Shown here: positions 3,136 to 63,454 of the stretch, piece after piece
How the letters are laid out: every line of letters begins with the position of its first letter
How positions within the stretch are numbered: the first letter of the stretch is position 1
DNA from: Patescibacteria group bacterium
GTDB lineage: Bacteria; Patescibacteriota; Minisyncoccia; Phycocordibacterales; BOKC01
Reading direction: 5' to 3'
Length of the DNA stretch: 64,000 nucleotides
Assembly: GCA_038062955.1 (NCBI GenBank)
Contig: JBBTWE010000001.1
Span: forward strand, 554,271-618,270
The notes under the pieces: model-generated
What the model saw: only the letters and a program-made list of their open reading frames with translations
Database searches by the model: none
Told to the model about the DNA's origin: nothing
Position numbers and translations under genes: made by a program

Positions 3136-3302
3136 GCCATCTCTGGAACATGCCCCTAATGCCGGGGGTATTTCTTTTTTTGAAGAGCAATCTGTTTAAA
3201 AGCTAGCAAAAAATTCTCTTGTTGTCAAAGATAAAAAATTTTGACTTAAACACAGAAATAAGATATCTATATATCCGGACGATCTTACAAAAAAGGAGTC
3301 GC

Positions 3303-3692
3303 ATGATCAGACCCCGATGTCGCCACAGAAGGAGACAGCACATCGCTCAAGCTTTGGTGAAGCACCATGCTTCCCACACCCGCGGACACTGGTGGTGGAA
3401 ACAAACACACCAGAGCATCATGGTTAGATTCAGAGCGCGTTCATTGGTAAACGCAAGAGGTCAGACTTGGGGAAACATCCGCATGCCACGGGACTTAGTG
3501 GAGATCGGCTTCGGAAAGAAAGACGTGCGAGACCAATTCCCCATTGGCTCAGAAATCTATGTGGCCTTTTCGATTGTAGGAACGCGTAGTTCCCCCCAAT
3601 TTATCTGGGAGGGAGTGAAAAAGATCAAACCAGTTTCTTTTAGTAAGGAGAACTCCCAGCTCCAAGAAGCCCACAACGACAAACCGCGATAG
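3303..3692 (+). CDS. Hypothetical Arg/His-rich protein (GC-rich island)
   Basis: AAAGGAG Shine-Dalgarno 5 nt upstream of ATG at 3303. The upstream ATG at 3219 in the ORF track lacks an RBS. No recognisable domain. Confidence 0.5.
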   Translation: MIRPRCRHRRRQHIAQALVKHHASHTRGHWWWKQTHQSIMVRFRARSLVNARGQTWGNIRMPRDLVEIGFGKKDVRDQFPIGSEIYVAFSIVGTRSSPQFIWEGVKKIKPVSFSKENSQLQEAHNDKPR

Positions 3693-3718
3693 ATAATTGA
3701 ATCATCGCGGTTTTTTTT
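3684..3718 (+). terminator. Rho-independent terminator
   Basis: CCGCGAT-13nt-ATCGCGG followed by T8, overlapping the stop codon. Confidence 0.7.
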
Positions 3719-3810
3719 AATTTCCAAACGAATATTTTGACAGAAAATTTAATTTATGTTTATATAAACCAGGATTTTTTACAAATCGTTCTTCAACAAC
3801 TGGAGGTCTC

Positions 3811-4884: not shown

Positions 4885-4912
4885 GTTTCGTAATCCTCAC
4901 TTCCCCCTCAAA

Positions 4913-7753: not shown

Positions 7754-7833
7754 TCCCCGAGATAGCGCACCCGTCTGCATCCCGCAGACAACCCGGATCA
7801 GTTCGCTGATCCATGTTCCAGGAGTTGGATCTC

Positions 7834-8430
7834 ATGCTCAACAAACTTCTCTCGGTCATGGTCTTCATGGCGTGGCTCGTTTGCCCCGCCGTGATCGCCC
7901 AGGCGCCGCATCTCCACGCGTTCGTGGATCCGGTGAACCAGTCGGTGAACACGATCAACGTCAGTTGGTTCGTCGAAACAGGAGAGCTCCTGATGTCGAC
8001 AGCCATCAGCCGTGCTCCAATGATGGAGTTCAACTGGAATGAAGAAGACGGCACCCACAACACGCTCACGACCGAAGTCAGCAACACCAAGGAATGGGTC
8101 TTCGAGATCACATCGATCACCGGCCTCGGAGCGTTCGAGAACGGCAAGATCGTCCCGCAAGGACAAGGCCAGGGTCCGGCTCAGAGTTCCTACACAACCT
8201 CATGGGTCGATTCGAATGGTTCAACATGGACAGTGCTCACGCTACGCACCTCAACCACTGCTGCAGGAAGGAAAGAAGAACTCCGAAACCACCTCGAACA
8301 AGTAAGGGAGATGCAATCAGCATTCCCCCCAAGACCCGTGACGCCACCGCCCGAACCGGAGCCGGAGGAAGCGTTCCTCTCCCCGCCACCCAGGTGGCAC
8401 CGATCCGAGGTACGACTCGCGCTTGTCTAG
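7834..8430 (+). CDS. Secreted Pro-rich hypothetical protein (about 60% GC)
   Basis: AGGAG RBS, then ATG at 7834. Signal peptide MLNKLLSVMVFMAWLVCPAVIAQA with AxA site. C-terminus PPRPVTPPPEPEPEE. GC about 60% against a 35% background. ORFs on other frames and the opposite strand overlap it. Confidence 0.5.
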   Translation: MLNKLLSVMVFMAWLVCPAVIAQAPHLHAFVDPVNQSVNTINVSWFVETGELLMSTAISRAPMMEFNWNEEDGTHNTLTTEVSNTKEWVFEITSITGLGAFENGKIVPQGQGQGPAQSSYTTSWVDSNGSTWTVLTLRTSTTAAGRKEELRNHLEQVREMQSAFPPRPVTPPPEPEPEEAFLSPPPRWHRSEVRLALV

Positions 8431-31108: not shown

Positions 31109-31261
31109 AACTTTCACATTTGGCCAATTACTTTGCTAAAATCTGCGCTTCGATGCTGATTTCTACATCATAGAAATCATGTCGGAAGATTTTTTATCAC
31201 GAAGTGATATAAAATTTCTGACTCAGTTTTATCAAAGAACTTGTCTCAAATCTGGAAGTTC
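31109..31261. mobile_element. MITE-like element immediately upstream of tuf
   Basis: TIR AACTTTCACATTTGGCC / CAAATCTGGAAGTTC. Contains the GAAATCATGTCGGAAGATTTTTTATCACGAAGTGATATAAAATTTC module shared with 50371 and 62280. Confidence 0.55.
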
Positions 31262-31394
31262 TAAGTTATTAGTAAATAATTATTAAAATTTTATCAAAAT
31301 TTAAATCAAATTGATTATTTTTGCTTACATACAAAAACAAAAATAGCGCAAAAGCGTTATCTGACATATTAACAAACATAATAAAAGAGTCAAC

Positions 31395-31459
31395 CCCGTA
31401 GTAGATTTTGGCATAGCAACTTCGTTGCGACAGCAACAATGCCAAAATCTACTACGGGG
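31395..31459. repeat. Long hairpin repeat (family B): CCCCGTAGTAGATTTTGGCAT ... ATGCCAAAATCTACTACGGGG
   Basis: Perfect 21-bp arms. Homologous copy at 63245-63301. The CTACTACGGG motif recurs at 9292, 36493, 54370 and 54466. Confidence 0.7.
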
Positions 31460-31487
31460 TCAAGGGATGATTTAGTTTTATAGGTTA

Positions 31488-31560
31488 ACCCGCCTAAATT
31501 TTTCTTGAAAAACTTTGGCGGGTAAAAGAAAAGACCCGTACCGAAGTACAGGCCCCATTT
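31488..31560. repeat. About 70-bp repeat (family C) at the 3' end of a GC-rich gene
   Basis: TTAACCCGCCTAAATTTTTC...GGCGGGTAAAAGAAAAGACCC. Homologous copy at 42762-42835 in the same position relative to another GC-rich minus-strand gene. Confidence 0.65.
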
Positions 31561-32072
31561 TAGGCTTTGGAATGCACTTGGCGAGAGAACACTCGACAAT
31601 TGCCAAAGCCCCTGTGAGACCACTTGAATGAACTGTGTGTGGTCATAGCGCCAATACGCCAACTACCATCAATCCAGGACACGTAGACAGTACGAAGCGT
31701 ACCTGCAACATCTCTGACATAGAAAATGTTGGCCATGGCATTTGTAAGAAGAACACCACGTTCACGATTCTCTTGCATCTTCATGAGAGAAGACATCACC
31801 GTCAAGGTGGTTTCAGCTTTTGCTTCACCACCAAGTTCATCTATGATGGAACTGTTGCAACAGGGCTGACACAATTCGTGATAACAGAGAGTCTGTTCGT
31901 CTTGTGGCTCCTCAACCTTGCCGTCACCCGCGAAAAACCAAATGTTGAAATTTTTTCTGGGGCAGTTTGGTCTTGCCTTAACTTCTCCACGACCGAACTT
32001 GGTCTTGGCAACCAACTTTTCAGCACTTGCAGACATGACAATCGTCCCAACAGTCTTGAGAATTGCAGACAT
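31560..32072 (-). CDS. Hypothetical Cys-containing protein (GC about 50%) inserted between fusA and tuf
   Basis: 170 aa. AGGAGG RBS 7 nt upstream of ATG. No recognisable domain. ORFs on the opposite strand overlap it. Confidence 0.5.
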   Translation of the reverse strand: MSAILKTVGTIVMSASAEKLVAKTKFGRGEVKARPNCPRKNFNIWFFAGDGKVEEPQDEQTLCYHELCQPCCNSSIIDELGGEAKAETTLTVMSSLMKMQENRERGVLLTNAMANIFYVRDVAGTLRTVYVSWIDGSWRIGAMTTHSSFKWSHRGFGNCRVFSRQVHSKA

Positions 32073-32319
32073 GACACACCTCCTAGATGTGTTTTGAATT
32101 GGATTTGTGACTTAGCGAAGTTGCTTTGCCACAGCAGGAGAAAGCCCAGGTTTTGGGCTGCATTCTGCTGTGGCAAACACGTATTTCTAACAAAGAACAA
32201 TCAAATATAGTATACACCCTTGCAGTATTTTTGTCAAGAACAAATTAGCCCTAGAAACAAGGTTAGTTTATGTATAAACAGGGTAAATAAGGAAAAAATA
32301 GTAGCAAATCAAAATTCTT

Positions 32320-34464
32320 TTACTTGCGAGATTCGATGATTTCAAGAGCTACGTTTTGAGGCACAATAGCATAATGATCAAATTCCATTGTTGAAGTACC
32401 ACGGCCAGAGGTCATAGAGCGTAGGGTTGTAACGTAACCGAACATTTCAGAGAGAGGAACAGTTGCTTTGATAGTTTTAAGATCACCTCGTTCTTCCATT
32501 CCTTCAATCTGTCCGCGTCTTCCACTCAAATCACCAGAAATATCACCCATGAATTTCTCTGGAGTAACGACTTCAACTCTCATGATTGGTTCAAGTAAAA
32601 CTGGCTTTGCTTTTTTGGCAGCTTCCTGAAAAGCTTGGGAGGCAGCAATTTTGTAGGCAATTTCTGAAGAATCAACATCGTGGTAAGAACCGAAAAGAAG
32701 ATCGCAAGAAATATTTGTCATCTTGAAACCAGCCACAATTCCCCTCTCGGTTGCTTCTTTAAGACCCTTTTCTACAGCTGGAATAAATTCTTGTGGAATA
32801 GCGCCTCCTTTGATGGAATCAATGAATTCAAAATCTCCAGTTCTCTTAACATTTTTAGGCACTTTCTTTTCTGGATCAAGTTTCTCCATTGGGGCAATCT
32901 TGATTTTAACGTGACCGTACTGTCCCTTACCTCCGGATTGCTTAATGTATTTAACTTCAGCTTCAGCGGTTCCAGTCACAGTTTCTTTGTAAGCTACTTG
33001 AGGTTTACCAACAGCTGTCTCAACAGAAAATTCTCTTTTCATACGATCAACCAAAATTTCTAGGTGAAGCTCTCCCATACCCATGATGATAGTTTCCCCA
33101 GTTTCGGCATCACTTTTAATTCTGAATGTTGGGTCTTCATCCGAAAGACGTTTAAGAGCCATACCCATTTTTTCTTGGTCGGCTTTTGTTTTAGGTTCAA
33201 TACGAAGAGAAATAACTGGCTCTGGAACAACAATTTTATCCAAAATAATCGGATTTTTCTCATCACAAAGAGTGTGAGAGGTTTTAGCTTCTTTAAGACC
33301 CACAGCGGCGGCAATTTCTCCGGAATAAACCTTCTTTACCTCCTCTCTCTTGTCTGCCTGAAGTCTCACGATACGGCCTAAGCGCTCGGTCTTTCCGGTT
33401 GAGGAATTGTAAATATAGGTACCGGCTTCCACTACTCCAGAATAAACTCTAAAGAATGCGAGTTGGCCCACGAATGGATCGTTTTGCAGTTTAAACACAA
33501 GAGCAGAAAGAGGCTCTTCATCGGATGGATGCCTCAACACTTCTTCATTGGTGTCAGGATGAACTCCCTTTACCGCTTTAATATCAAGCGGAGACGGCAA
33601 ATACTCGGTAACTGCATCGAGAACGAGCTGAACTCCTTTATTTTTAAGAGCGGAGCCAGTAAATACTGGAAAGAGACTACTACTGATTGTTGCTTTTCGA
33701 ATTGTTTTCTTCAAATCCTCGATTGAAATTTCTTTCCCTTCGAGATATGCGCTCATAAGGACATCATCAAATTCAACTACCTTCTCAACTAATTCTGCTC
33801 GGTATTTTTTTGACTCTGCGAGCATATCGGCCGGAATTTCTTTCTCGATAATGTTTATTCCTTTTTCACCGTCAAAATAATAGGCCTTCATCTTGAGGAG
33901 ATCAATCACTCCTTCAAAATTTTCTTCAGAGCCGATTGGCAACTGCATTCTTACAGCATTTTTATTCAAACGATCAAGAATTGAAGCGAAAGATTTATTG
34001 AAACTCGCTCCCATTCTATCGAGCTTATTGATGAAACAGATTCTTGGCACTTTTCCTTCATCGGCATATCGCCAATTAGTTTCTGATTGCGGTTCTACGC
34101 CGGCGACACCGTCGAACACCACGACCGCGCCGTCTAGTACACGGAGAGATCTTTTTACTTCAATTGTAAAATCAATGTGTCCTGGAGTATCGATAATATT
34201 GAAACGAAATTTCTTCGAATCATCCCCTTTTGGCATGTAGGTTGGATTCCAAAAACAAGTAATAGCGGCGGCGGTAATAGTAATACCTCTTTCTCTTTCT
34301 TGTTCCATCCAATCAGTGGTGGTTTCGCCCTCATGAACTTCACCGATCTTATGAATCATTCCGGTGTAATACAAAATACGCTCACTGGTTGTGGTTTTCC
34401 CAGCATCAATGTGCGCGATAATACCGAAATTACGTACTTTTTCTAGAGGATAATCACGATTCAT
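32320..34464 (-). CDS. fusA: Elongation factor G
   Basis: 714 aa, GTPase motifs [17 protein letters not shown]. Confidence 0.95.
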
Positions 34465-34755
34465 ATGATTTAAGATTTACGATTTATGATTTAAGAAATC
34501 AGTTAATTACTTTTTAAAAATTGTTCGAGCGATTATTATTATCGCATGAAATGGGCGATCCCAGTTCTAATTTTAATTGTAAATCAACTAGCAAAGCGCT
34601 TCGCCCATACAAGGAAGCGCTATTCGCGCACGCGCTTTGCGTGAGAAAGTGATTGAGCTTCTTTCAATTACGTTCTGTAAAAATAACTTGGTAAAATTAG
34701 AACAGGATGCTCCATTTTGCTAAGTAATTTTTCGACGGCAAAAGCCGTCTAAAAA

Positions 34756-35226
34756 TTACCAAGCAAAATGGGCAAACGCCTTGTTCGACTCCGCCATTCT
34801 GTGAGTATTTTCCCTCTTTTTCATAGCTTCACCCTCACTCTTGCTTGCCGCAATGAGCTCATCAGCAAGCTTCATGGCCATAGGAACTCCTTTTCGGCTT
34901 CTAGCAGCCTCAATTATCCATTTCATAGACATTGCTTGTCTGCGTTCTGGTCTAACTTCTCTTGGAATCTGATAATTAGCTCCTCCAACACGGCGAGATC
35001 TAACTTCCATAGAAGGACTAGTGTTTTTTATAGCAGTATCAAAAATTTCTAGAGGATTTTCTGTTTTGGCCTTTTCTTTTATGAGATCCATCGCTTCATA
35101 GACAACTTTCCTGGCAACTTCTTTTTTGCCGTCGTTCATCACGTAATTTATAAATTTATCCACCTTAACGGAGTTAAATTTAAAGTCTGGATGAATTTCT
35201 CTTTTTGTTCTGATTTTTCTTCTCAT
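34756..35226 (-). CDS. rpsG: 30S ribosomal protein S7
   Basis: Sequence and order. Confidence 0.9.
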
Positions 35227-35247
35227 AATTTTAGATTTTTAGTGATT

Positions 35248-35664
35248 CTATTTAGCAGCCTTCGGTTTTTTAGCTCCGTACTGGCTTCTGCCTTTCATTC
35301 TTTTCTCTACACCTGTTGCATCAAGCACACCTCTTACGATGGTATACCGGAGACCAACGTCTTTTACTCTACCACCGCGGATCATAACCACTGAATGCTC
35401 TTGGAGATTGTGTCCAATACCTGGAATGTACGCAGTTACTTCCATACCATTTGTGAGTCGAACTCTCGCAATTTTTCGAATAGCGGAGTTTGGTTTCTTA
35501 GGAGTTTTAGTTGTTACTTTAATACATACACCTCTTTTAAAAGGAGCTGGAAAATAAACCGGTCGATTTTTTAAAGTATTAAAACCACGAGCCAAAGCAA
35601 CGGCCTTTGATTTTTTATATACTTTTATTCTTTTTCTTCGGACTAATTGATTTATTGTCGGCAT
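35248..35664 (-). CDS. rpsL: 30S ribosomal protein S12
   Basis: [10 protein letters not shown]... Confidence 0.95.
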
Positions 35665-35751
35665 GTTTCAATCTTAAATCTGAAATCTTCGATCTCAAAT
35701 CTGTTTATACGAATAGGCAATACTTTAATACTTTTCCTATAAAAATGCAAA

Positions 35752-36384
35752 TCAAAATGGTAGGCCGGTTAAAAGACCATAAAGCCAGCCGATGAGTGGA
35801 GAAACGAAATCCCATAAAAAGAAAACGAAAAAAAGAACAATCACGAATCCGAATTGTTCCAAGCGATCTTTGAGACCTTGAAATCGCAAAGGCAAAATTG
35901 AAAATAAAATCTTCGAACCATCTAGAGGCGGAATTGGGATTAAGTTAAAAAGGCCTAAAACTATATTTAAAATAACGATAGAGCTTCCTAAATTTATAAA
36001 TGCTGGAGAAACACCAAAATTTATTCCAAACCTTATTACCAAGCCAAAAATTACTGCTAAAAATAAATTGGTGATAGGACCTGCCGCCGCAACAATTAAT
36101 TCTCCCCACTTTTGATTTCGAAGATTGTACGGATTATAAGGAACGGGTTTGGCCCAACCAAAAATTATGCCGGTGCCCAAAATTTGAAGCATTAAAGGGA
36201 TAAATATTGAACCGACAGGATCAATATGCTTTATTGGATTCAAAGTAAGCCTGCCGGCGTGTTTGGCAGTATTGTCCCCCAAGAAAAGCGCGGCATAACC
36301 ATGAGAAAGTTCGTGGAGAATGACCGACATTATGAGGATTATGATTATAAAAATGAAATCCATCCCGTTAGTGAAAAATGGCAT
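35752..36384 (-). CDS. Site-2 protease family (M50) zinc metalloprotease
   Basis: HELSH within TM1, polytopic, LDG motif. Confidence 0.75.
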   Translation of the reverse strand: MPFFTNGMDFIFIIIILIMSVILHELSHGYAALFLGDNTAKHAGRLTLNPIKHIDPVGSIFIPLMLQILGTGIIFGWAKPVPYNPYNLRNQKWGELIVAAAGPITNLFLAVIFGLVIRFGINFGVSPAFINLGSSIVILNIVLGLFNLIPIPPLDGSKILFSILPLRFQGLKDRLEQFGFVIVLFFVFFLWDFVSPLIGWLYGLLTGLPF

Positions 36385-36615
36385 TATTTGCTCGCCATTA
36401 TCAATTTAATTTATAAACAATATATTAAAACTATATAAATTATATTATTCTTAATTATCTTTCTCGCAAATAAATAAGAGCTATGCCATTTTCTACTACG
36501 GGATCCATACTAAAAGTGTAAATATTCTCCTATTTGATTTTTAACCAGCTTATGATAACATGCCAGAACATATTTTAAGTCCTTATAACCTACAAACTTA
36601 TAACTTTTAAACAAT

Positions 36616-36855
36616 ATGAGAGTCTGTCCAATAACAAATAAAAAAACAATTGTCGGCGGGGGTTACAGTAACAGAACTCGTGCTACCCAGTTTAATCCAA
36701 CTGGTAAAAGAACCAAAAAACCTAATATCCAAAGAAAAAGGATCTATATTCCTGAACTCAAAAAAACTATTTCTATAAATATTTCAACTAAAGGCCTCCG
36801 AACTATCAATAAGAACGGGGCCTACATCACCCTCAAAAAAGCCGGCATCATATAG
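36616..36855 (+). CDS. rpmB: 50S ribosomal protein L28
   Basis: MRVCPITNKKTIVGG... Confidence 0.85.
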   Translation: MRVCPITNKKTIVGGGYSNRTRATQFNPTGKRTKKPNIQRKRIYIPELKKTISINISTKGLRTINKNGAYITLKKAGII

Positions 36856-36976
36856 AACTTGTAATTTTGACGCAACTTCGTCGTTACTTCGCTCCGGTGC
36901 TCCCTCGTCCTATTTATTAATAGGCCTCAGTTCGCTCCTCACTCGCGCCTAGAATTGCATCCAAAATTACAAGTTC
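36855..36976. mobile_element. MITE-like element with perfect 15-bp TIR (GAACTTGTAATTTTG / CAAAATTACAAGTTC)
   Basis: Abuts rpmB stop. Internal sequence is the reverse complement of the 29361 copy's core. Confidence 0.6.
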
Positions 36977-37015
36977 TAAGGAAAAAGAAGGCCTCTGCAG
37001 TAAAGCGAGGTTTTT

Positions 37016-37885
37016 TTATTTATTAGAAAAAGAACGAACGTCTAAATTTTTTCCATCAGACTCAATCAAAATCGTTCCTAAATCATAAGTTCCTAAAATT
37101 TCTATATTATGAGAGTTTAAAATATCAATCACTTCCTTATGGGGATGGCCGTAACTATTATCTTTTCCTGCTTGAATTACTGCGTATCTCGGATTTACCG
37201 TCTCAATAAATGAAGTTGCACTTGAAGTTCTCGAGCCATGATGACCGATCTTTAAAACATCGCTTTCTAAATTTTCACCATCTAAATACACTAAATATTC
37301 TTCAATTGATTGAGGAGAATCTCCGGTAAGTAGGAAGCTCTTTTCTCCATACACCAATTTACCAACAATTGAGGCAACATTTGTTTCGACATCCAACACA
37401 TCTCTATCTGGAAAAAGAATAATAAACTTTGCCCCTCCCCCCAAATCAACAGTCACTCCCCTCCGCGCAACAATTCTTTTAGTGTCTTTTTTTGATAGGG
37501 CAACTTCAAAATTTCCAAGAACCGCGGTTTCAGCGTTAACATTTGGATCTATTTCAAAATCAACATCGTAATTTTTCAAAACCTCGACCAGCCCGCCTAT
37601 ATGATCTTTGTCTGGGTGTGTCGACACAACTACATCAATTTTTCTATCATGAAAAGGAAGAACTTTTGATAATTCTTGAAGAACAGTTTTTCCTGGACCC
37701 CCATCAACGATCATTTTATTGCCAGATGGAGATTTAATAAAAATCGAATCTCCTTGCCCTATATCTAGAAAATAAACTAAAAGTTTGTCGTTTTGCTCCC
37801 AAGCGACCACATACCAAACAAAAACATTCACTAAAATCAAAAGGCTGACAAGATATTCTTTGGAATGTCTAGCTAGTTTTTGCAT
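37016..37885 (-). CDS. ComEC/Rec2-type metallo-beta-lactamase domain protein (stand-alone)
   Basis: N-terminal TM anchor then MBL motifs (HPDKDHIGG, GHHGS). Matches the C-terminal domain of ComEC. Confidence 0.7.
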   Translation of the reverse strand: MQKLARHSKEYLVSLLILVNVFVWYVVAWEQNDKLLVYFLDIGQGDSIFIKSPSGNKMIVDGGPGKTVLQELSKVLPFHDRKIDVVVSTHPDKDHIGGLVEVLKNYDVDFEIDPNVNAETAVLGNFEVALSKKDTKRIVARRGVTVDLGGGAKFIILFPDRDVLDVETNVASIVGKLVYGEKSFLLTGDSPQSIEEYLVYLDGENLESDVLKIGHHGSRTSSATSFIETVNPRYAVIQAGKDNSYGHPHKEVIDILNSHNIEILGTYDLGTILIESDGKNLDVRSFSNK

Positions 37886-38048
37886 TGTAATGATTATATT
37901 TCAATAAAGAAAATAGATATAATATATTTAAATTAAGTCAAAACTCAAAAGGCAAAAATCAAAATTTAAAGTAAAAAGTGTTAAATTTAATAATATTAGA
38001 TTCTTTTTTGACTTTTGGATTTTTAATTGCAATTTTGACCTTTGAATT

Positions 38049-39563
38049 TTGCCTTTTAACTTTACTTTTATGAAACGTCCCTCTAATTGGGTCCTAGGCT
38101 TCATCTCCGCATTTATTATCGGAGTATTCATTCAATCTTTCCTAAATTTCACAGGTCTTTATCTTTTTTTTCTCGAACTAGCCTTAATATTTGGGGGAAT
38201 TTCACTTCTCCATTTCTTTCAAAAAAATAGAATCTCTCTCACTTTTGGTTTTTTAACACTAATACTTATCGCTTCCTCTTTAGGGATTCTTAGAACAGAA
38301 AAAGTTCTATTACCAAAAGATAATCTAGAAAAATCTCGTGATACTGGAGAAATTATAACCTTTATCGGAACTATCGTAGAAGAACCTGACATAAGAGACA
38401 CCAACATAAAATACACCGTTTTAGTTGAAGAAATTGATGAGAGAATCTTAATTACTGCTAAAATTTTTCCAGAGTTAGAGTACAAAGATAGAATAAAGTT
38501 GTCTGGAAAATTAGAAACACCGAAAGAATTCCCAGAATTTAACTATCGAGAATTCTTAATTAAAGACAAAATACACACCGTTTTATACGATCCAGAAATT
38601 GAGTTAATCGAAAAAAAGAATTTTTCTTTTTATCAAAAAATTCTAGACATTAAAAATATTTTAAGACGCTCCACAGAAAAAATTCTGCCTTATCCATACA
38701 GTGAAATTTTAAAAGCGATGATGCTCGGCGATACCAGTTCTCTTCCTCAAGATGTAAAAGATATTTATAAAAATGTTGGTTTAAGCCATATTCTGGCAAT
38801 TTCCGGAAGTCACATCACTATAATTGCCGGAATTTTATTTTCTCTCTTAAACCTTACTAGATTTAGAAAAAAATCTTTTTACATAATTTTGAGCGTGCTC
38901 ATTTTCTATATCGTACTAATCGGGTATCCTGCTTCCGCGGTAAGAGCTGGTATTATGGCCGGAATTTTACTCTTGGGTGAAAAATTAAAACGGCCTTACT
39001 TTATAGAAAGAGGTCTTTTGGTCGCAGCCTTTTTAATGCTTATAATAAATCCTTTGTTCTTACGATACGACATTGGATTTCAGTTATCTTTTCTCGCAGT
39101 TCTAGGCATATCGCAAACCCAAAATATTTTTAAAGATTTTTTCAATAAATTTTTCCGAGGAAAATTACTGTGGTTTCAGGATGTTTTGGCGATCACTTTG
39201 GCTGCTCAAATCTACACTTTACCACTTGTTATATATAACTTTGGTTTCTTTTCTTTATTCTCTCCTCTGGTCAACATTCTAGTTGTTCCAACCTTGCCGA
39301 TGCTCACAATTTTGAGTTTTATCGCGATCTTTGCCGGCGTAATCTGGAGTTTCTTGGGAATTCTCCTTGCTCTGCCTGTTTATCTAATTCTGGTTTACAT
39401 ACAAAAAATAAGTATCTTTTTCGGAAGCATTCATTTAAATTCAATAACAATAGAATCTTTGAGCTTCTTTTGGGTGATTATTCTTTACCTCGTTATTGGA
39501 CTAACAGTCTGGCGTCTCAAAAAGCGGAATAAACGTGCATTACAAAACTCGTCTAATCAATAG
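38049..39563 (+). CDS. comEC: ComEC/Rec2 competence channel domain protein (DUF4131 plus competence domain, no MBL domain)
   Basis: 504 aa polytopic. Competence-domain motifs (LGDTSSLP..., LSHILAISGSHITI). Confidence 0.75.
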   Translation: MPFNFTFMKRPSNWVLGFISAFIIGVFIQSFLNFTGLYLFFLELALIFGGISLLHFFQKNRISLTFGFLTLILIASSLGILRTEKVLLPKDNLEKSRDTGEIITFIGTIVEEPDIRDTNIKYTVLVEEIDERILITAKIFPELEYKDRIKLSGKLETPKEFPEFNYREFLIKDKIHTVLYDPEIELIEKKNFSFYQKILDIKNILRRSTEKILPYPYSEILKAMMLGDTSSLPQDVKDIYKNVGLSHILAISGSHITIIAGILFSLLNLTRFRKKSFYIILSVLIFYIVLIGYPASAVRAGIMAGILLLGEKLKRPYFIERGLLVAAFLMLIINPLFLRYDIGFQLSFLAVLGISQTQNIFKDFFNKFFRGKLLWFQDVLAITLAAQIYTLPLVIYNFGFFSLFSPLVNILVVPTLPMLTILSFIAIFAGVIWSFLGILLALPVYLILVYIQKISIFFGSIHLNSITIESLSFFWVIILYLVIGLTVWRLKKRNKRALQNSSNQ

Positions 39564-39589
39564 TTTTTGAGAGACATTGCGGAGGCGAG

Positions 39590-39720
39590 TCAGAAATTTT
39601 ATATCACGAAGTGATATAAAATCTTCCGACATGATTTCTGTAGTGCAAATCGCGTCGTAAATTTTACACAACTACGTTGTGAAAAATCTTCCGACGTGAT
39701 TTCTGTAGTGCAGAAATCAC
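39590..39720. repeat. Two inverted-orientation copies of the ATCACGAAGTGATATAAAAT / CCGACATGATTTCTGTAGTGCA modules
   Basis: Shared with MITE internal modules (31161, 50455, 62366) and with 19981. Confidence 0.6.
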
Positions 39721-40460
39721 CACCCCTTAAGAACTTCTCTTTCTTCCTCCTGATTCGCAACTTTTTTAAACTTAGCCCCTTTAACCCCCAAAACTATTCT
39801 TTTGCATTCATCCCAAGTCTTATGAGTCATTATTTTTCCATCAACCTTACTTAGATAATATCCAATTTTCGGGGCACGAGATTTTGATTTCTTTTTTAAC
39901 GCAGTTTTAATCTTAATATCGAAAATATCTTTAATTTTATAATCTTTAAAATCGCCAGAAAAAAGTTCGGGAATTTTACCTTCTGCAAAACCCCCAGCAA
40001 TTTCATCTACTCTTTCATTACCCGGAATTCCACTATGACCGGCGACATGTATCCATTCCACGGGTCGGATTTTGGTTTGCTCTAAAAGCTCCTCCCACAA
40101 ATCTTTATTTAAAACCGGCTCTTTATTCATCGTAACCCAATTGCGCCTCTCCCATGAGAAGACCCATTTGGTAATGCCGTTTATAACATAACTTGAATCA
40201 GTGTGGACTTTGATAGAATGCCGCGTCGCCAAATTAGACGCATGCAATAATTCTAAACCTTTTATCGCAGCCATAAGTTCCATTCGGTTATTGGTAGTAT
40301 GCTTCTCTCTCCCACCCACTTCTTTCACTGTGTAATCATTTTCTTTTGGAATCAAAACAACTGCCCCATAACCTCCTGGCCCAGGATTACCTAATGACGC
40401 ACCATCAGCAAAAATAACAATACTATCTGAACTATTTTGAATATTTTTTTTCTTAATCAT
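39717..40460 (-). CDS. rnhA: Ribonuclease HI with C-terminal hybrid-binding-domain-like extension
   Basis: RNase H catalytic residues (FADGASLGNPG..., TNNRMEL, HTDS, HSG..NE.VD). C-terminal YYLSKVDGKIMTHKTWDECKRIVLGVKGAKFKKV resembles the HBD/caulimovirus-viroplasmin motif normally N-terminal in RNase H1. Track start 40535 lies in a repeat, so trimmed to ATG 40460. Confidence 0.75.
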   Translation of the reverse strand: MIKKKNIQNSSDSIVIFADGASLGNPGPGGYGAVVLIPKENDYTVKEVGGREKHTTNNRMELMAAIKGLELLHASNLATRHSIKVHTDSSYVINGITKWVFSWERRNWVTMNKEPVLNKDLWEELLEQTKIRPVEWIHVAGHSGIPGNERVDEIAGGFAEGKIPELFSGDFKDYKIKDIFDIKIKTALKKKSKSRAPKIGYYLSKVDGKIMTHKTWDECKRIVLGVKGAKFKKVANQEEEREVLKGW

Positions 40461-40474
40461 AAATTTCTTTGAAT

Positions 40475-40595
40475 TACAAAACTCGTCGAAATCATAGTTT
40501 TTGAGAGACATTGCGCAGGCTGGCGAGCCGAGCATAGCAAAAATCTAGCAAGATTTTATGCGCGTCTATCAAAAACTTATGATGAGAAAGGGTTT
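40475..40595. repeat. Dispersed repeat family D
   Basis: Near-identical to 62478-62630 except that the latter carries a 32-bp insert also present at 5540-5570. Partial copy at 39555-39583. Confidence 0.7.
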
Positions 40596-40611
40596 TGTAA
40601 TTCAAGGTAAT

Positions 40612-42324
40612 TTATAAAAATACGTCGATAATCCTCAACCTTAATTCTTTTCTTCCTCCAAAAGAAGATTTTTCGAGCGAAGCTACCAGATTCACTTTAG
40701 CATCTGGAAGCAGGAGCCCCAACTTATCTGTACTTACAAAAAAACAAATTCCTTTTACTCTTGTGCCTTTTAAGCCTAGTTCCAAATGATTTTTCTGCTT
40801 TCCAAAAATCTTAACATACCCCACCTCTGCCTGCTCAATTAAAAAAATCGGTTTGGGATTGCTCATTCCAAAGGGGGCGAGCTTATCAATCAAATCAAAT
40901 GTCTTCCAAGTAAGATCGGTGAGAGATAATTTTTCATCTATCGGTGTTTTTGCTCTTTCTCTTCCAGAGGAAGCTTCCTCGGCACAAATTGATTCGTAAG
41001 ATTTCAAAATTGCTTCTGGGAGTGTATGTATTTTTTCAAAAGAAACAGAAAATCCTCCAGCCGCTTTGTGTCCCCCAAATTGCAAAAATTCTCCCGAAAT
41101 TCTCTCCATTATAGCGAGCGTGTTTATCTTTCCATCCCCCCTACATGATCCTTTAATAATTTCCTCCCCATCACGGCCCCAGAGAAACACTGGTTTGCAA
41201 AAATCTTCCACCAAAGAGCCTGCGACTAGCCCCAAAAGAGACGGTCGCCACTTTGGGTTCCCAAGCACTATAACTTTTTCGAAACGCCCAGTATCTTCTT
41301 TGATTCTTGCTCTAACTTCTTTGGCCATTCCTGCGACCACCCCTTTCCTCTCATCATTTATTTTATTTAAAATGTCAGTCTTTTCCCAAGCAATTGTTTC
41401 ATCTGTCGTGGATAAAAGGTGGAAAGCGTCCCGAGGGTTCCCCATCCGACTTGCGGCATTTATCCGGGGCGTGATCATAAATCCAATATCATCTTCAGAT
41501 GCCGAAGATTGATTCACTCCAACTTTTCGAAACAGTCGCTTGAGCCCAGGACGACGAGATTTTCGCAGGACCTTAAGCCCAAAATAAGCCAAAATTCTGT
41601 TTTCACCCAAAAGTGGAACCATATCTGAAAGTGTTGCGAGCCCGGCCATATCGAGAAACCATTTTTCGGCACCCTCTTTCCAAGGAAAAACTTTTTGACC
41701 TGATGCAAGTACTCCTTGGACCAATTTAAAAGCTGTAGCGGCCCCGCAAATCATTGTAAAAGGATATTTAGAGTCTGGATGTTTGGGATTTATAACTGCG
41801 AACGCCTCCGGCAATTTTGTTTTTGGCTCATGATGGTCAGTGATAATCACATCGATGCCAGAATCCTGGGCCATTCTCACTTGCTCTATGTCCGCAATCC
41901 CGCAATCAATCGTGATAATTAATTTGACCTCATCTTTGGAAAAATTTTCAATCGCTTTGAGATGGAATCCGAACCCTTCTAAATGTCGGTCTGGAATATA
42001 GTTGGTAAAATTCTCGTGCCCTGCCGCCCTAAAAAAATCATGGAGAATTACCGCGCCAGGAATTCCGTCAGCATCATAATCGCTATAAATAACTATTTTT
42101 TCTTTCTTTTCGATCGCTTGGAGAATTCTTTTAACCGCCTTTTCCATATCAGCGAGCAAATACGGGTCATGCAAACTGGCATAATCAGGATTTAAAAAAG
42201 TTTCGATTTCTTTTTTTTCCGTAATACCTCGGATGGAAAGCAATTTTCTAAGTAATGGAGATAAATTATCCTCTTTTAAATTATTGGATGTAAAGACATC
42301 GGTATTTAAGGAGTATTTATCCAT
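40612..42324 (-). CDS. recJ: Single-stranded-DNA-specific exonuclease RecJ
   Basis: DHH (ITDHHEP) and DHHA1 motifs, 570 aa. Confidence 0.85.
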   Translation of the reverse strand: MDKYSLNTDVFTSNNLKEDNLSPLLRKLLSIRGITEKKEIETFLNPDYASLHDPYLLADMEKAVKRILQAIEKKEKIVIYSDYDADGIPGAVILHDFFRAAGHENFTNYIPDRHLEGFGFHLKAIENFSKDEVKLIITIDCGIADIEQVRMAQDSGIDVIITDHHEPKTKLPEAFAVINPKHPDSKYPFTMICGAATAFKLVQGVLASGQKVFPWKEGAEKWFLDMAGLATLSDMVPLLGENRILAYFGLKVLRKSRRPGLKRLFRKVGVNQSSASEDDIGFMITPRINAASRMGNPRDAFHLLSTTDETIAWEKTDILNKINDERKGVVAGMAKEVRARIKEDTGRFEKVIVLGNPKWRPSLLGLVAGSLVEDFCKPVFLWGRDGEEIIKGSCRGDGKINTLAIMERISGEFLQFGGHKAAGGFSVSFEKIHTLPEAILKSYESICAEEASSGRERAKTPIDEKLSLTDLTWKTFDLIDKLAPFGMSNPKPIFLIEQAEVGYVKIFGKQKNHLELGLKGTRVKGICFFVSTDKLGLLLPDAKVNLVASLEKSSFGGRKELRLRIIDVFL

Positions 42325-42391
42325 AATGTGAGAGATTATAGCACGGTCAAATAGCGATTTTTCATTAATTTGGTATTATTTACCCAAACAA

Positions 42392-42760
42392 ATGGAGGAT
42401 AAAAACTGTATTTTTTGTAAAATAGTTAAAAAAGAAATTCCAGCAAATATTGTCTATGAAGACAATGATTTTCTAGCCTTTTTGGATATTCACCCACAAT
42501 CCCCTGGGCACACCCAAGTGATTCCCAAAAAACATTTTAGATATGTATGGGATGTTCCGAATGCCGGAGAATATTTTGAAATAGCAAAAAAAGTGGCTCT
42601 AGCCCAGAGAAAAGCATTTAAGACTGACTGGATTTTAAGCAAAATTGTTGGAGATGAAGTTGAACACGCACACATTTGGGTTTTTCCCGGAAACGATGCG
42701 ATTGGAGACAAAAACGACTTCAAACAAAACGCCGAGGAAATTATTAAAAATTTGGATTAA
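42392..42760 (+). CDS. HIT family (histidine triad) hydrolase
   Basis: HAHIWVFP triad, 122 aa. Confidence 0.8.
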   Translation: MEDKNCIFCKIVKKEIPANIVYEDNDFLAFLDIHPQSPGHTQVIPKKHFRYVWDVPNAGEYFEIAKKVALAQRKAFKTDWILSKIVGDEVEHAHIWVFPGNDAIGDKNDFKQNAEEIIKNLD

Positions 42761-42761
42761 C

Positions 42762-42835
42762 CCGCCAAAATTTTTGCGGAGCAAAAACTTAGGAGGGTAA
42801 AAGAAAAGCCCCACACCAAGTGTGGAGCCGGAGTT
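42762..42835. repeat. Family C repeat copy 2
   Basis: TTAACCCGCCAAAATTTTTGC...GGAGGGTAAAAGAAAAGCCCC. Confidence 0.65.
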
Positions 42836-42855
42836 CAACGCATATCTCCAAAGCG

Positions 42856-43512
42856 TTAGTAGCAGAACCAGATTGCCGTCGTGACGAGCCAGCTCAATTC
42901 ATTGCCTGACTCGCCGATTAGCATTCCTTGGTTCTTCTTGTTCCAACCATCCTGTCGTGCCGCGAGCCAAATCTCAACTAGCCTCGTGCAAACAGTGATG
43001 TGACCTATCGTGAGAGTCGCACCTGCCAAACCGTCTTTTCGACCTGCAACGATGATGCAGTACCCGATAAACAGTTGAGGCACACTCTTGAGTAGCAACG
43101 CGATAATGCCTCTGGTGATCGGTTCAGAAACTGTCGCAACGAGCGACCCTTTCCGTCGTGTTACCAGTAGCACCGCGAGACTAACGAGAATCAAAATGGT
43201 GAGTATCGTGTCTTGTCTCGACCACGTGCCCTTGATGGCGATGATGGCGAACAAAGTAAGCCAGAGCAGCAACCAGTTTGCATACACGAGCACCACCTGA
43301 CCAGCCTTTCGACTCTTCGACTGTTCATAAGCTCCGAGAGCCAAGAACAAATTGATGAGAACGAATGCCGAGCAGAACATGGTCCATGTAATGGTCATGC
43401 CCGCAGTGCTCTCAAGAGAACGGATGACTTGCGGCACAGTGAAGGCCCAAGCCATTGATAGCTGGAACCAGAAAAGCAGGTCGCCAGCTAGCCGCTTGTT
43501 TTCGGCAGACAT
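42856..43512 (-). CDS. GC-rich polytopic membrane protein, possible PQ-loop repeat family
   Basis: 218 aa, about 7 TM. Two PQ motifs (VPQVIR, VPQLFI) about 110 aa apart. Local GC about 52%. Confidence 0.4.
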   Translation of the reverse strand: MSAENKRLAGDLLFWFQLSMAWAFTVPQVIRSLESTAGMTITWTMFCSAFVLINLFLALGAYEQSKSRKAGQVVLVYANWLLLWLTLFAIIAIKGTWSRQDTILTILILVSLAVLLVTRRKGSLVATVSEPITRGIIALLLKSVPQLFIGYCIIVAGRKDGLAGATLTIGHITVCTRLVEIWLAARQDGWNKKNQGMLIGESGNELSWLVTTAIWFCY

Positions 43513-43653
43513 TGGAAACCTCTTTCGGTTGATTGTTTGAAGGAACTCAAATCCTTTACTAGGATAGCATACTTGCTACTTGTTTGTCAATAGAATCTTA
43601 TGGCTTTAAATAAGGCCTGATTTGGCAAGATATGCTGAAAAAGAGCTCAGAAT

Positions 43654-44046
43654 TTACTTAGGGATATAGTATAAATCCTCTTCAAATTCATAACCAATTG
43701 ATTCCTGACCCCATTCTTTTGCCCAAACTGCTATTCGTTCGAAAAGTTTGTTTTGATTTTTCTTGAATGCTTCATCTGTAGCAAAAGATACTACACGTAC
43801 AAAATGTTCTTTTATAATTTTGTCTTCTCCTTTTTTACGAATCACATATCCCCCCGTGAGATCATACACATTGTATCCGCCAAAGAGACTAGCCAAAAAT
43901 GAACAGACCTCGTCAACTCTTTGAATAAGCTTTTCACGAGAAAGTTGTTCAGAAATATTACTAGTTGATGGGACATATACTGCCTGTTGTATAGGCAAAT
44001 GTATAAATTTACTTTCTTGTTCTTTCGTTAAATTTAGAACTACCAT
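43654..44046 (-). CDS. Hypothetical protein
   Basis: 130 aa, no recognisable motif. Confidence 0.4.
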   Translation of the reverse strand: MVVLNLTKEQESKFIHLPIQQAVYVPSTSNISEQLSREKLIQRVDEVCSFLASLFGGYNVYDLTGGYVIRKKGEDKIIKEHFVRVVSFATDEAFKKNQNKLFERIAVWAKEWGQESIGYEFEEDLYYIPK

Positions 44047-44076
44047 AAGTTTGTATAATTAACTTATAAATACATC

Positions 44077-45986: not shown

Positions 45987-46066
45987 ATGAGTTTAGGTTA
46001 ACTTCGTAACTTACGGAATATTTTAGCACGTTTTTATAGTTATTGAAGAAAAAATAGAGAATATTA

Positions 46067-46208
46067 AAACTTTCAGATTCCTGCCTGCCGGCAGGCAGGT
46101 GAGACAAGTTTTTTAATAAAACCGAGCACCGAAACGAGACGTATTACCTATACGATGAAGTGAGGCGCGGAGGTTTTAGTAAAAAAATTGGCCAAATATG
46201 GAAGTTCT
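46067..46208. mobile_element. MITE-like element abutting a pilin-like gene stop
   Basis: TIR AAACTTTCAGATTC / CCAAATATGGAAGTTC. Contains the 20-bp CCTGCCTGCCGGCAGGCAGG palindrome and a GACGTATTACCTATACG module. Confidence 0.55.
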
Positions 46209-50370: not shown

Positions 50371-50549
50371 GAACTCTCAAATTCGGTGCATACCTTTGTT
50401 ACTTCGCTCCGAGAGCCTCCCTCAACGTATTATTAAATACGTCTCGTTATGGTTCACCATAGAAATCATGTCGGAAGATTTTTTATCACGAAGTGATATA
50501 AAATTTCCGACTCGCTCGTACCTCGGTCTGCATCCGAATTTGAGAGTTC
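50371..50549. mobile_element. MITE-like element between pilin gene and pilC
   Basis: TIR GAACTCTCAAATTCGGTGCA / TGCATCCGAATTTGAGAGTTC (20 bp, one mismatch). Modules: CGCTCCGAGAGCCTCCCTCAACGTATTATTAAATACGTCTCG, and GAAATCATGTCGGAAGATTTTTTATCACGAAGTGATATAAAATTTCCGACTC. Confidence 0.65.
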
Positions 50550-50552
50550 TAA

Positions 50553-51776: not shown

Positions 51777-51798
51777 GTTTGTTGCTTAAATTTTTGTA

Positions 51799-51874
51799 GA
51801 ACTTTCAGATTCCTGCCTGCCGGCAGGCAGGTGAGACAAGTTTTAGTAAAAAAATTGGCCGAATCTGGAAGTTC
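51799..51874. mobile_element. Short MITE-like element between pilC and pilB
   Basis: TIR GAACTTTCAGATTC / GAATCTGGAAGTTC enclosing the CCTGCCTGCCGGCAGGCAGG palindrome. Confidence 0.55.
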
Positions 51875-62280: not shown

Positions 62281-62466
62281 AACTTTCACATTCGGCGTAT
62301 CTCTGCGTTACTTCGCTCCGAGCCTCCCTCAACGTATTATTAAATACGTCTCGGTACGGTTCTGATTTCTACACCATAGAAATCATGTCGGGAGATTTTT
62401 TATCACGAAGTGATATAAAATTTCCGACTCGCTCGCGCCTTGATCTGCATCCGAATCTGAAAGTTC
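62280..62466. mobile_element. MITE-like element overlapping rpsO stop
   Basis: TIR GAACTTTCACATTCGG / CCGAATCTGAAAGTTC. Module content near-identical to the 50371 copy. Confidence 0.65.
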
Positions 62467-62477
62467 TATAAGAAACT

Positions 62478-63222: not shown

Positions 63223-63244
63223 AGACGGGGTTGACCCCTGAGTT

Positions 63245-63301
63245 TCTTTTGGCATCGTCACATTCGCAACGGAAGTTGCTATGGCAAAATCTACTACGGG
63301 G
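63245..63301. repeat. Family B hairpin repeat copy
   Basis: TTTTGGCATCGTCACATTCGCAACGGAAGTTGCTATGGCAAAATCTACTACGGGG, homologous to 31395-31459. Confidence 0.65.
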
Positions 63302-63454
63302 TTGACTGGAACACTATAAATAATATACAATTGGGTACTAATGGTTCGCCCGCAAGGCGAGCCAAATTTTTTAGAAAAATAAGACGCAAAGCGACTATAT
63401 TTTTCTTAACCCTAAATAAGGTGTTCTAGAAATTAATCGCTTATTACAAAATTA

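Follow-up and report, generated by a model that had tools for sequence, protein, structure and literature searches.

Two GC-rich genes of a Patescibacteria group bacterium, unrelated to each other and 11 kb apart among housekeeping genes, are followed by much the same sequence. Both lie in a stretch of 64 kb (NCBI GenBank assembly GCA_038062955.1, contig JBBTWE010000001.1, positions 554,271 to 618,270 of the forward strand) – here called the window – which has a GC content of 38.8% and holds about 60 genes. We consider it probable, at roughly 0.6, that the shared sequence is a composite 3′ module, in which a predicted terminator – a stem–loop (hairpin A) with a T-tract behind it – is joined to a second stem–loop (hairpin B) from a Patescibacteria-wide family of palindromes, and that it is not a vehicle for gene cassettes.

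A preliminary description of the window had read the recurrence of one element behind two different cargo genes as the sign either of a common vehicle – a cassette, an integron-like system or a transposon end – or of a shared imported terminator. The terminator idea holds for one half of the element: the hairpin A type with its T-tract also follows homologues of one of the genes in two other organisms, whereas hairpin B, which is no terminator, has not accompanied the cargo genes elsewhere. What the shared sequence appears to mark is a predicted terminator joined to a promiscuous palindrome rather than an integron-like vehicle, which removes an attractive but wrong lead.

Two copies of a bipartite element

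The shared element does occur where it had first been noticed, just after the stop codons of two GC-rich minus-strand genes, which encode proteins of 170 and 218 residues. Its copies occupy 31485–31537 and 42757–42812, begin alike with TTAACCC – three bases earlier than previously described – and end alike at AAAAGAAAAG.CCC (31537 and 42812). Identity extends to 46 of the 56 aligned columns overall and to 45 of 49 (~92%) outside the palindrome apex; past the end of the identical stretch the likeness is only structural, with a GC-rich stem–loop in both (31531–31556 and 42807–42829). Read along the minus strand, both copies follow the order stop codon, hairpin A, CTTTTCTTTT, hairpin B and TAA (Table 1), and the consensus of their two hairpins B is ACCC.CC.AAGTTTTT-apex-AAAAATTT.GGCGGGT.

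The 19-nt left arm, searched with up to three mismatches, matches at four places, namely both arms of either copy, where chance would give 0.21. Both window sites are recovered by a covariance model of hairpin B, derived from 116 unrelated copies, with expectation values (E) of 3e-13 (copy 1) and 8e-15 (copy 2); nothing else in the 64 kb scores better than E = 0.38, and the search yielded no third or degenerate copy. The minus-strand RNA folds as two clean hairpins at each site (−33.2 kcal/mol for copy 1 and −39.1 kcal/mol for copy 2, with z = −4.5 and −4.8, values equalled by none of 200 shuffles), and the plus strand folds poorly.

The sequence of hairpin A differs between the two copies while the 10-nt T-tract is identical. 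At none of the four informative positions do their hairpins B agree, and each represents another apex subtype (CTTG and GCGGAGC). Copy 2 is closer to copies from other organisms, at the loci L018, L108 and L140 (related loci are given here by L numbers), than to copy 1. At copy 1, six contigs from the same population are identical over 930–1230 nt, with no strain-level polymorphism there.

Table 1. Features of the two modules and of the genes beside them; positions are those of the window, and a dot stands for a feature given without strand.
Feature	Position	Strand	Description
Hairpin B, copy 1	31488..31523	.	36-nt imperfect palindrome ACCCGCCTAAATTTTT-CTTG-AAAAACTTTGGCGGGT; short-apex subtype
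T-tract, copy 1	31524..31533	-	CTTTTCTTTT; directly abuts hairpin B
Hairpin A, copy 1	31531..31556	-	GGGGCCTGTAC-TTCG-GTACGGGTC; predicted terminator stem–loop of the 170-aa gene
170-aa gene	31560..32072	-	GC 46.6%, GC3 0.47; between fusA and tuf; function unassigned
Promoter-like site of 170-aa gene	32209..32237	-	TTGACA-17-TATACT; 11/12 consensus matches
HIT-family gene, native	42392..42760	+	Convergent with 218-aa gene; end ..AATTTGGATTAA runs into hairpin B
Hairpin B, copy 2	42760..42798	.	39-nt palindrome ACCCGCCAAAATTTTT-GCGGAGC-AAAAACTTAGGAGGGT; long-apex subtype
T-tract, copy 2	42799..42808	-	CTTTTCTTTT; abuts hairpin B
Hairpin A, copy 2	42807..42829	-	GGCTCCACAC-TTG-GTGTGGGGC; predicted terminator stem–loop of the 218-aa gene
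3′-UTR motif	42828..42854	-	GCTTTGGAGATA-N7-AACTCCGG; between 218-aa gene stop and hairpin A
218-aa gene	42856..43512	-	Multi-pass membrane protein; GC 51.6%, GC3 0.62
Promoter-like site of 218-aa gene	43561..43590	-	TTGACA-18-TATCCT

The terminator half

The stems of hairpin A comprise 11 pairs (5 of them G–C) in copy 1 and 10 pairs (6 G–C) in copy 2, with loops of 4 and 3 nt, and in both copies the U-run CTTTTCTTTT follows directly 3′ of the stem on the minus strand. The hairpin begins 3 nt past the stop codon of the 170-aa gene and 26 nt past that of the 218-aa gene. Hairpin A and the T-tract (CUUUUCUUUU, minus strand) together constitute a predicted Rho-independent terminator that would end the transcript of each GC-rich gene. 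In sequence and position it resembles intrinsic terminators: a GC-rich stem of 10–11 bp, a loop of 3–4 nt, an immediate U-rich run and a position 3–26 nt past a same-strand stop. What intrinsic terminators do not have is a second hairpin with an AT-rich core after the U-run; hairpin B, itself without a U-run, does not qualify as a terminator.

Homologues of the 218-aa gene at L118, L120, L123, L124, L125 and L236 have retained a similar promoter and 5′ untranslated region (UTR), and in five of these six loci a terminator stands right after the stop (the L236 sequence ends before that point). One terminator type – CC[CT]GTAC..GTAC[GA]GG followed by TTTcTTnTTT – is found behind such homologues in two other organisms; at L124 and L125 it reads CCCCGTAC-loop-GTACGGGG and then TTTCTTGTTT or TTTGTTGTTT. 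Because the same hairpin type with its interrupted T-tract recurs behind the homologues, the predicted terminator moves together with the 218-aa gene. No hairpin B accompanies it there: the palindrome is absent from the homologue loci of both genes (L118, L120, L123, L124, L125, L133, L134 and L237).

Compared with the window, the L124/L125 terminator is of the same type as hairpin A of the 170-aa gene, and is related to that of the window's own 218-aa gene through paired changes in the stem. Within 1.53 Mb of fetched DNA, CC[CT]GTAC..GTAC[GA]GG occurs at three places only, downstream of the 170-aa gene in the window and after the 218-family genes in L124 and L125/126. The homologues of the 170-aa gene at L133, L134 and L237 share another terminator, TTGACCC(C)TCGG...CCGAGGG-T run; the 170-aa gene of the window therefore carries a terminator of the 218-gene type.

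A family of small palindromes across the CPR

Copies of hairpin B were retrieved with an exact palindromic pattern, which overstates the conservation of the family and understates its copy numbers – a bias that itself tells against our interpretation – and which matched more than 117 metagenome contigs, from groundwater and sediments, and 97 stretches in GTDB species-representative genomes, with 1–6 listed stretches per genome. Among the matches listed, every record with a lineage name belongs to the Patescibacteria, or candidate phyla radiation (CPR): Wolfe-, Zambryski-, Jackson-, Buchanan-, Lipton-, Kaiser-, Yonath-, Nealson-, Taga-, Nomura- and Yanofskybacteria, Paceibacterota and metagenome-assembled genomes labelled Saccharibacteria. 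Viral contigs scanned with the same pattern gave no match. With about 27 specified bases, no chance match is expected by our own estimate.

The non-redundant set from groundwater metagenomes and Patescibacteria genomes comprises at least 203 copies of 35–42 nt, mostly 37 or 39, of the form ACCC[G/T]CC-n-AAATTTTT-apex-AAAAACTT-n-GG[C/A]GGGT. The two strands are unequal: the one that reads AAATTTTT..AAAAACTT has an A.C mismatch (the AC strand), while the opposite strand pairs that position as G.U (the GU strand). This asymmetry is the same in 102 of the 119 copies of the first set; in copy 1 of the window, the minus strand is the better-pairing GU strand. The few positions that the search pattern leaves free covary in a way that preserves the stem. 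One variable stem pair is occupied by GC (62 copies), UA (23), AU (2) or CG (1) and an apical one by GC (39), AU (10) or UA (4); the covariation score reaches 0.057, against 0.024 in shuffles and a level attained by none of 500. Two positions are mismatched in most copies (87 and 97 of 116). As the apex varies in length while pairing is kept, hairpin B is better understood as a hairpin in a single-stranded nucleic acid than as a duplex operator.

Rfam returned nothing at gathering thresholds, and at permissive ones only noise (microRNA and small nucleolar RNA models); a literature search found no paper that describes hairpin B. The family of small palindromic repeats to which it belongs is new and extends across the CPR.

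One class of copies, recognised by a 'gctc' flank (L014, L043, L073, L023, L066 and similar loci), has hairpin B as the apex of an imperfect palindrome of about 100–130 nt, with outer arms resembling CGAAGTGA...TCACTTCG or GAGCGAAGCGAAT...CGCTTCGCT. This longer palindrome may be a larger parent element.

Contexts of hairpin B outside the window

The family recurs in several kinds of place, among them the interior of open reading frames (ORFs). Forty-one of the 117 metagenome copies lie within ORFs of at least 80 codons, and 21 of the 203 copies stand in-frame in type IV pilin-like leaders, just before the G|FTLIE cleavage and methylation motif (N_methyl). In pilin leaders all copies are either 37 or 40 nt long, and two flanking bases bring the in-frame insert to 39 or 42 nt (13 or 14 codons). 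The encoded segment has the form T-x-Q-N-F-S-K-K-N-L-G-G; the coding strand is the AC strand in 16, symmetric in 4 and the GU strand in 1. Such loci include L022, L027, L051 (2460–2535), L058 (1564–1678), L069, L102, L110, L163, L194 and L215, with two copies in tandem at L051 and three at L058. Elsewhere, an in-frame insert stands just ahead of the DeoC domain in L090, and a copy lies at the N-terminus of a radical-SAM protein in L107.

Gene starts form a second context. Thirty-eight copies lie no more than 30 nt upstream of the ATG of a long ORF, the sense strand being AC in 28, GU in 7 and symmetric in 3, and the 3′ arm AGGAGGGT then comes to lie at the Shine–Dalgarno position. The genes downstream include those for EF-Tu (tuf), EF-Ts (tsf), the ribosomal proteins L15 (rplO), L10 (rplJ) and S4 (rpsD), MreB, NDK and PilC, at loci such as L198, L211, L214, L144, L172, L159, L208 and L205, where the arm stands 8–18 nt ahead of the ATG, and a genome may have several such copies. 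At L198 (4303–4466), two hairpins B immediately precede tuf; at both L211 and L214, one has been kept upstream of tsf.

Gene ends are the third. For about 60 of the 203 copies, a stop codon precedes the palindrome at a distance of no more than 30 nt, and both orientations occur. Hairpin B also stands a few bases upstream of AGAGTTTGATCCTAGCTCAG in L162 (2153–2230), which we take to be the 5′ end of 16S rRNA, having recognised the 27F primer site by eye. Hairpin B is not specific to cargo genes: it follows native genes broadly too, the very outcome that the preliminary description had named as a refutation of its reading. Neighbours of atypical composition (+8 GC points) accompany 3.2% of 157 copies elsewhere, against 4.1% of random positions.

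These contexts suggest how the family might behave. Hairpin B would be a palindromic repeat of small size that inserts into DNA and persists at sites where the damage is slight, and would sometimes have been co-opted because its 3′ arm AGGAGGGT can act as a Shine–Dalgarno sequence. For the window copies, past the terminator, the most likely role would be only that of an extra stem–loop or insulator.

One may ask instead whether hairpin B is chiefly a functional, cis-acting RNA hairpin maintained by selection and not a selfish repeat: a 5′ stabiliser, or a device that sequesters the Shine–Dalgarno sequence, at highly expressed genes, and a protective or insulating 3′ stem–loop in the window. 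The covarying stem pairs and the two conserved mismatches would fit, as would the orientation bias ahead of start codons (28 versus 7), the AGGAGGGT arm 3–16 nt before the ATG of tuf, tsf, rplO, rplJ, mreB, ndk and pilC, and the retention of orthologous positions, for example before tsf. The same sequence, however, also occurs in-frame in coding regions, in tandem, in both orientations after stops and beside the 16S rRNA 5′ end; it is sporadic among genomes and nearly identical across distant CPR lineages; and the window copies have no start codon downstream, lying beyond the terminator on the gene strand. We regard this explanation as unlikely.

That the whole element might be a generic native terminator, used after many ordinary genes, is extremely improbable. 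The copies near stop codons and the canonical form of hairpin A with its T-tract would agree with it, but hairpin B lacks a U-run on either strand, occurs inside ORFs and before start codons, and is present only twice in 64 kb with about 60 genes; the junction sequence, moreover, is unique to this genome within the material searched.

Whichever of these roles applies, hairpin B is a sequence nearly invariant across many CPR lineages, of a size that fits in-frame insertion, recurring in pilin leaders, ahead of the most highly expressed genes – where its 3′ arm can act as the ribosome-binding site – and beside gene ends. Should the family be mobile, it would rank among the smallest insertional repeats known and would provide a useful marker of DNA exchange in unculturable bacteria; should it be functional, it would represent an expression signal shared by the group.

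Two single-gene units, probably from elsewhere

The genes that carry the module stand out from their surroundings. The minus strand, which holds most genes of this part of the window, has the order rpsL-rpsG-fusA-[170-aa gene]-tuf-rpsJ-rplC, followed further along by ComEC, RNase H, RecJ, HIT (on the plus strand), [218-aa gene], a 130-aa gene, PGK and TIM. As first described, the two genes are GC-rich relative to the window as a whole, and their GC content at third codon positions (GC3) is raised in comparison with the neighbouring housekeeping genes (0.23–0.36). The 170-aa family is confined to Patescibacteria, as are the homologues of the 218-aa gene (52–92% identity), and both families occur mostly in genomes of 45–50% GC. 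Neither protein matches a Pfam, NCBIfam or PHROG family, and neither has a relative on viral contigs. The 218-aa protein had been called PQ-loop-like; the JGI name of a single homologue agrees, and Pfam gives the label no match.

The best consensus promoter matches within 14 kb are the sites ahead of these two genes, and the promoter and 5′ UTR of the 218-aa gene have been kept in homologous loci. Since a scan for promoters and terminators finds no more sites in total than in shuffles, the argument rests on position and conservation more than on the scan as such. Promoter, ribosome-binding site, ORF and predicted terminator make each GC-rich gene a self-contained unit, and both units were probably acquired from a higher-GC Patescibacteria donor.

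A 36-nt tandem duplication (32027–32098; 72% identity) spans the start of the 170-aa gene and places ATGTCTGCAA at codons 1 and 13; the true start of the gene may be the second ATG.

On the far side of copy 2, the first base of hairpin B is the last A of the TAA stop of the HIT gene. The 11 bases before that A, AATTTGGATTA (N-L-D-stop), recur unchanged as the last bases of an unrelated PilB gene at L004 and L175, which runs into a hairpin B with arms identical to those of copy 2, and the HIT orthologues of the syntenic relatives L136 and L138 have different ends, without hairpin B. As the HIT tail equals the PilB tail and HIT orthologues end otherwise, insertion seems to have rewritten the final codons, which suggests – though this is an inference – that the inserted unit of the copy 2 subtype extends some bases to the left. 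Copy 2 would thus supply the last base of the HIT stop and possibly the final codons of the gene.

The place between HIT and PGK holds other genes in relatives. Compared with the window (42760–44050), the slot in L136 (4400–5700) – a syntenic relative of equal GC (38.7%) – and in L137 holds an unrelated GC-rich gene for a 200-aa protein, together with a paralogous fragment sharing 126 nt at 87%, and at L236 a homologue of the 218-aa gene (92%) directly follows PGK. The slot looks like a hot spot for foreign genes. Kinship between the 200-aa gene and the window's 170-aa gene was considered and rejected on comparison. The 3′-UTR motif GCTTTGGAGATA-N7-AACTCCGG, with a variable terminator hairpin, recurs at L136 (4893–4919), L137 (4529–4555) and L133 (4975–5001), and so follows unrelated GC-rich genes in three organisms; the version of L136 and L137 is homologous to that of the window, that of L133 lies 267 nt past the 170-family gene, and in L133 and L136 ...GTAGTAGGTGAATATG comes after the motif. 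Neither Rfam nor viral contigs gave a match to the motif, which may be a 3′-UTR element, a small RNA or a module boundary.

Two homologues of the 170-aa gene sit in inserts with repeated ends. At L134 the insert is bracketed by direct repeats of 29 nt (3874–3902 and 4753–4781; 100% identical, 879 nt apart) and ends at the terminator T-run, and at L133 by repeats of 39 nt (3840–3878 and 4849–4887; 79%, 1009 nt apart). In both cases the repeats are copies of the 3′ end of the upstream gene around inserts of about 0.9–1.0 kb, which looks like the footprint of a single-gene insertion. No such flanking direct repeat is present at L237 or in the window, and the duplication is therefore not universal; a 22-nt direct repeat in the window (73%, 1003 nt apart) is AT-rich and not significant.

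These data bear directly on the proposal that the element is the recombination site of a mobile cassette, attC-like or the end of a transposon, by which both genes would have arrived. In its favour, the palindrome is imperfect, keeps certain positions unpaired and follows two genes that are unrelated and foreign in composition, and the 170-family homologues of L133 and L134 behave like single-gene insertions flanked by direct repeats. Yet hairpin B has no RYYYAAC/GTTRRRY cores, but ends in ACCC..GGGT with variable flanks; the two genes have their own promoters and form no array, lying far apart among str-operon and glycolysis genes; hairpin B is missing from every homologous cassette examined, at seven independent loci; and the great majority of the family's copies, of which there are at least 203 elsewhere, sit in native contexts without enrichment for GC-atypical neighbours. 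The matching element looked for at the opposite, 5′ boundary exists for neither gene, as judged by the covariance model and repeat searches. The only repeat that flanks the 170-aa gene is an inverted match of 16 nt (31409–31424 and 32116–32131), which was rejected as a 5′ partner because it is part of another hairpin family, one associated with promoters. The window's GC-rich islands, the part scanned for integrases, hold accessory enzymes of an ordinary kind, and no integrase or transposase domain turned up in them. Already largely refuted, the cassette-site reading is very improbable, and hairpin B would not be the recombination site that delivered the genes. For the uptake of genes by these small genomes, the single-gene units, the direct repeats of L133 and L134 and the shared slot are better leads than hairpin B.

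How the two junctions may have arisen

Several observations weigh against the composite module as a full account. A terminator hairpin and T-tract abut hairpin B in only 4 of the 203 copies, and two of these four are the window's own; GC-atypical neighbours are found beside only about 3–4% of copies elsewhere. The junction GGGTAAAAGAAAAG was not found in 1.5 Mb of related loci beyond this genome's own contigs, and a junction-specific scan with AAAAACTTNGGNGGGTAAAAGAAAAG gave no match in 185,579 species-representative genomes, so that neither a donor nor a relative with the same junction emerged. Nor was any pair of filled and empty alleles found, the mobility of hairpin B being deduced from its contexts. 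Because abutment is rare elsewhere and occurs twice here, it is not explained by a general property of hairpin B and implies either a shared history or a specific junction mechanism; the two junctions are probably linked historically and unlikely to be independent accidents.

Three histories can be envisaged. The whole module of terminator and hairpin B may have been copied long ago from one gene unit to the other, a history to which we give not quite even odds and which would also account for the 218-type terminator on the 170-aa gene. Alternatively, and more doubtfully, two hairpins B may have inserted at the same point of two homologous terminators; the far-side flanks are alike too (TAACC and TAATCC). 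Under the third, which is improbable, both gene units were captured beside resident copies of hairpin B. All three leave the functional reading the same: a predicted terminator with an accessory hairpin.

The third history deserves a closer look, as it makes hairpin B a resident site of the host that attracts DNA – for example if a cruciform caused breaks or stalled forks, or if an enzyme recognised the hairpin – and the boundary between T-tract and hairpin B a capture scar. The junction is exact in either case, and a difference in subtype such as that between the two copies is what independent resident copies would show; the pair of copies before tuf in L198, another Patescibacteria genome, the other GC-rich genes in the HIT–PGK slot of L136, and an arrangement rare elsewhere yet found twice here can all be cited in its favour. 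The 157 copies surveyed elsewhere, however, have no excess of GC-atypical neighbours, the L136 slot holds foreign genes without hairpin B, the 170-family cassettes of L133 and L134 are bounded by duplicated 3′ ends of the upstream gene and not by hairpin B, and the identical 10-nt T-tract is better explained by homologous terminators. A resident capture site is as improbable as the history built on it.

It is conceivable, though quite improbable, that hairpin B is the recognition hairpin of a DNA- or RNA-handling system, Patescibacteria-wide and so far undescribed, the junctions then being scars of the capture or exchange of single-gene units. Such a system would resemble attC capture in function, with no known integrase involved, and the copies in pilin leaders and those supplying Shine–Dalgarno sequences would be by-products or co-options.

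Comparison with known palindromic repeats

Several described repeats share features with hairpin B. Like the REP/BIME elements of proteobacteria, associated with RAYT (a Y1 HUH transposase), hairpin B is an imperfect palindrome in the range of 20–40 nt with conserved mismatches that make its strands unequal, is often found just after genes and has no target-site duplication. REP elements, however, are extragenic and number tens to hundreds per genome, while hairpin B occurs twice in 64 kb and, by the strict pattern, in 1–6 listed stretches per genome; about a third of its copies lie inside ORFs, and its sequence is common to many CPR lineages instead of being species-specific. No GTAG-type 5′ tetranucleotide stands beside hairpin B in the flanks examined.

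The Rickettsia palindromic elements (RPEs), which Ogata and colleagues are said to have described in 2000 as lying in-frame in protein-coding genes, are similar in being palindromic repeats that occur both in such genes, where they add a short peptide, and between genes. The pilin leaders (21 copies) and the DeoC insert of L090 place hairpin B among in-frame palindromic elements in this sense. RPEs are nonetheless 100–150 bp long and restricted to Rickettsia, whereas the hairpin B inserts amount to 39–42 nt, or 13–14 codons, mostly in cleaved pilin leaders, in Patescibacteria hosts.

Correia elements (NEMIS) of Neisseria are 100–155 bp long, are flanked by a TA duplication and reach hundreds of copies per genome. 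They share with hairpin B the nature of small palindromic repeats that carry expression signals, form hairpins when transcribed and lie near the starts and ends of genes; their size, TA duplication and copy number are not shared. With attC sites, the likeness is confined to an imperfect palindrome that keeps some bases unpaired and follows a foreign gene: hairpin B has neither R''/R' cores nor an array or integrase, each gene brings its own promoter, and the palindrome is a common feature of native genes.

As to miniature inverted-repeat transposable elements, the flanks of hairpin B contain no consistent target-site duplication. All 203 copies end in ACCC..GGGT, which the search pattern imposes, and are flanked by TTT, TTA or TTC to the left and by AAA, TTA, GAA or GCT to the right; an apparent repeat GGnTTTACC at the pilin loci consists of the pilin's own G-F-T codons. 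TIGR arrays, finally, have repeats of 8–12 nt alternating with variable 9-nt spacers in 5–15 units beside a Tas (Nop-domain) gene (PMC12045711). They are ruled out here: hairpin B occurs singly or as two to three near-identical tandem units, has no variable spacers and lies in pilin ORFs.

Other repeats and GC-rich islands of the window

Hairpin B is one of several repeat families in this small genome. At least 20 further intergenic families are present in the window, many of them hairpins with GAAG or TTCG loops; examples lie at 31166–31262, 50455–50551, 62372–62468, 39586–39712, 46054–46121 and 51786–51853. Close to copy 1, a long hairpin with perfect 22-bp arms (31393–31460) overlaps with its 3′ end the promoter-like TTGACT-16-TAATAT ahead of tuf, and the same promoter-associated family recurs at 63240–63302, with TTGACT-N-TATAC at 63.3 kb. 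A 15-nt piece of the loop at 31393–31460 (GGCA.AGCAACTTCG) returns in inverted form at 32116–32130, within the 5′ UTR of the 170-aa gene. The 22-nt arm has no match on viral contigs.

Further GC-rich islands, with GC3 of 0.48–0.70 and none with hairpin B, are found at 7813–8430, 13061–15917 and 3219–4884. They hold an ORF to which no function was assigned, a sugar-modification trio (a GFO/IDH/MocA oxidoreductase, a DegT aminotransferase and a NUDIX protein) and a transglutaminase-like protein. The islands at 7813–8430 and 13061–15917 end in their own, unrelated terminators, each a hairpin with a T-run.

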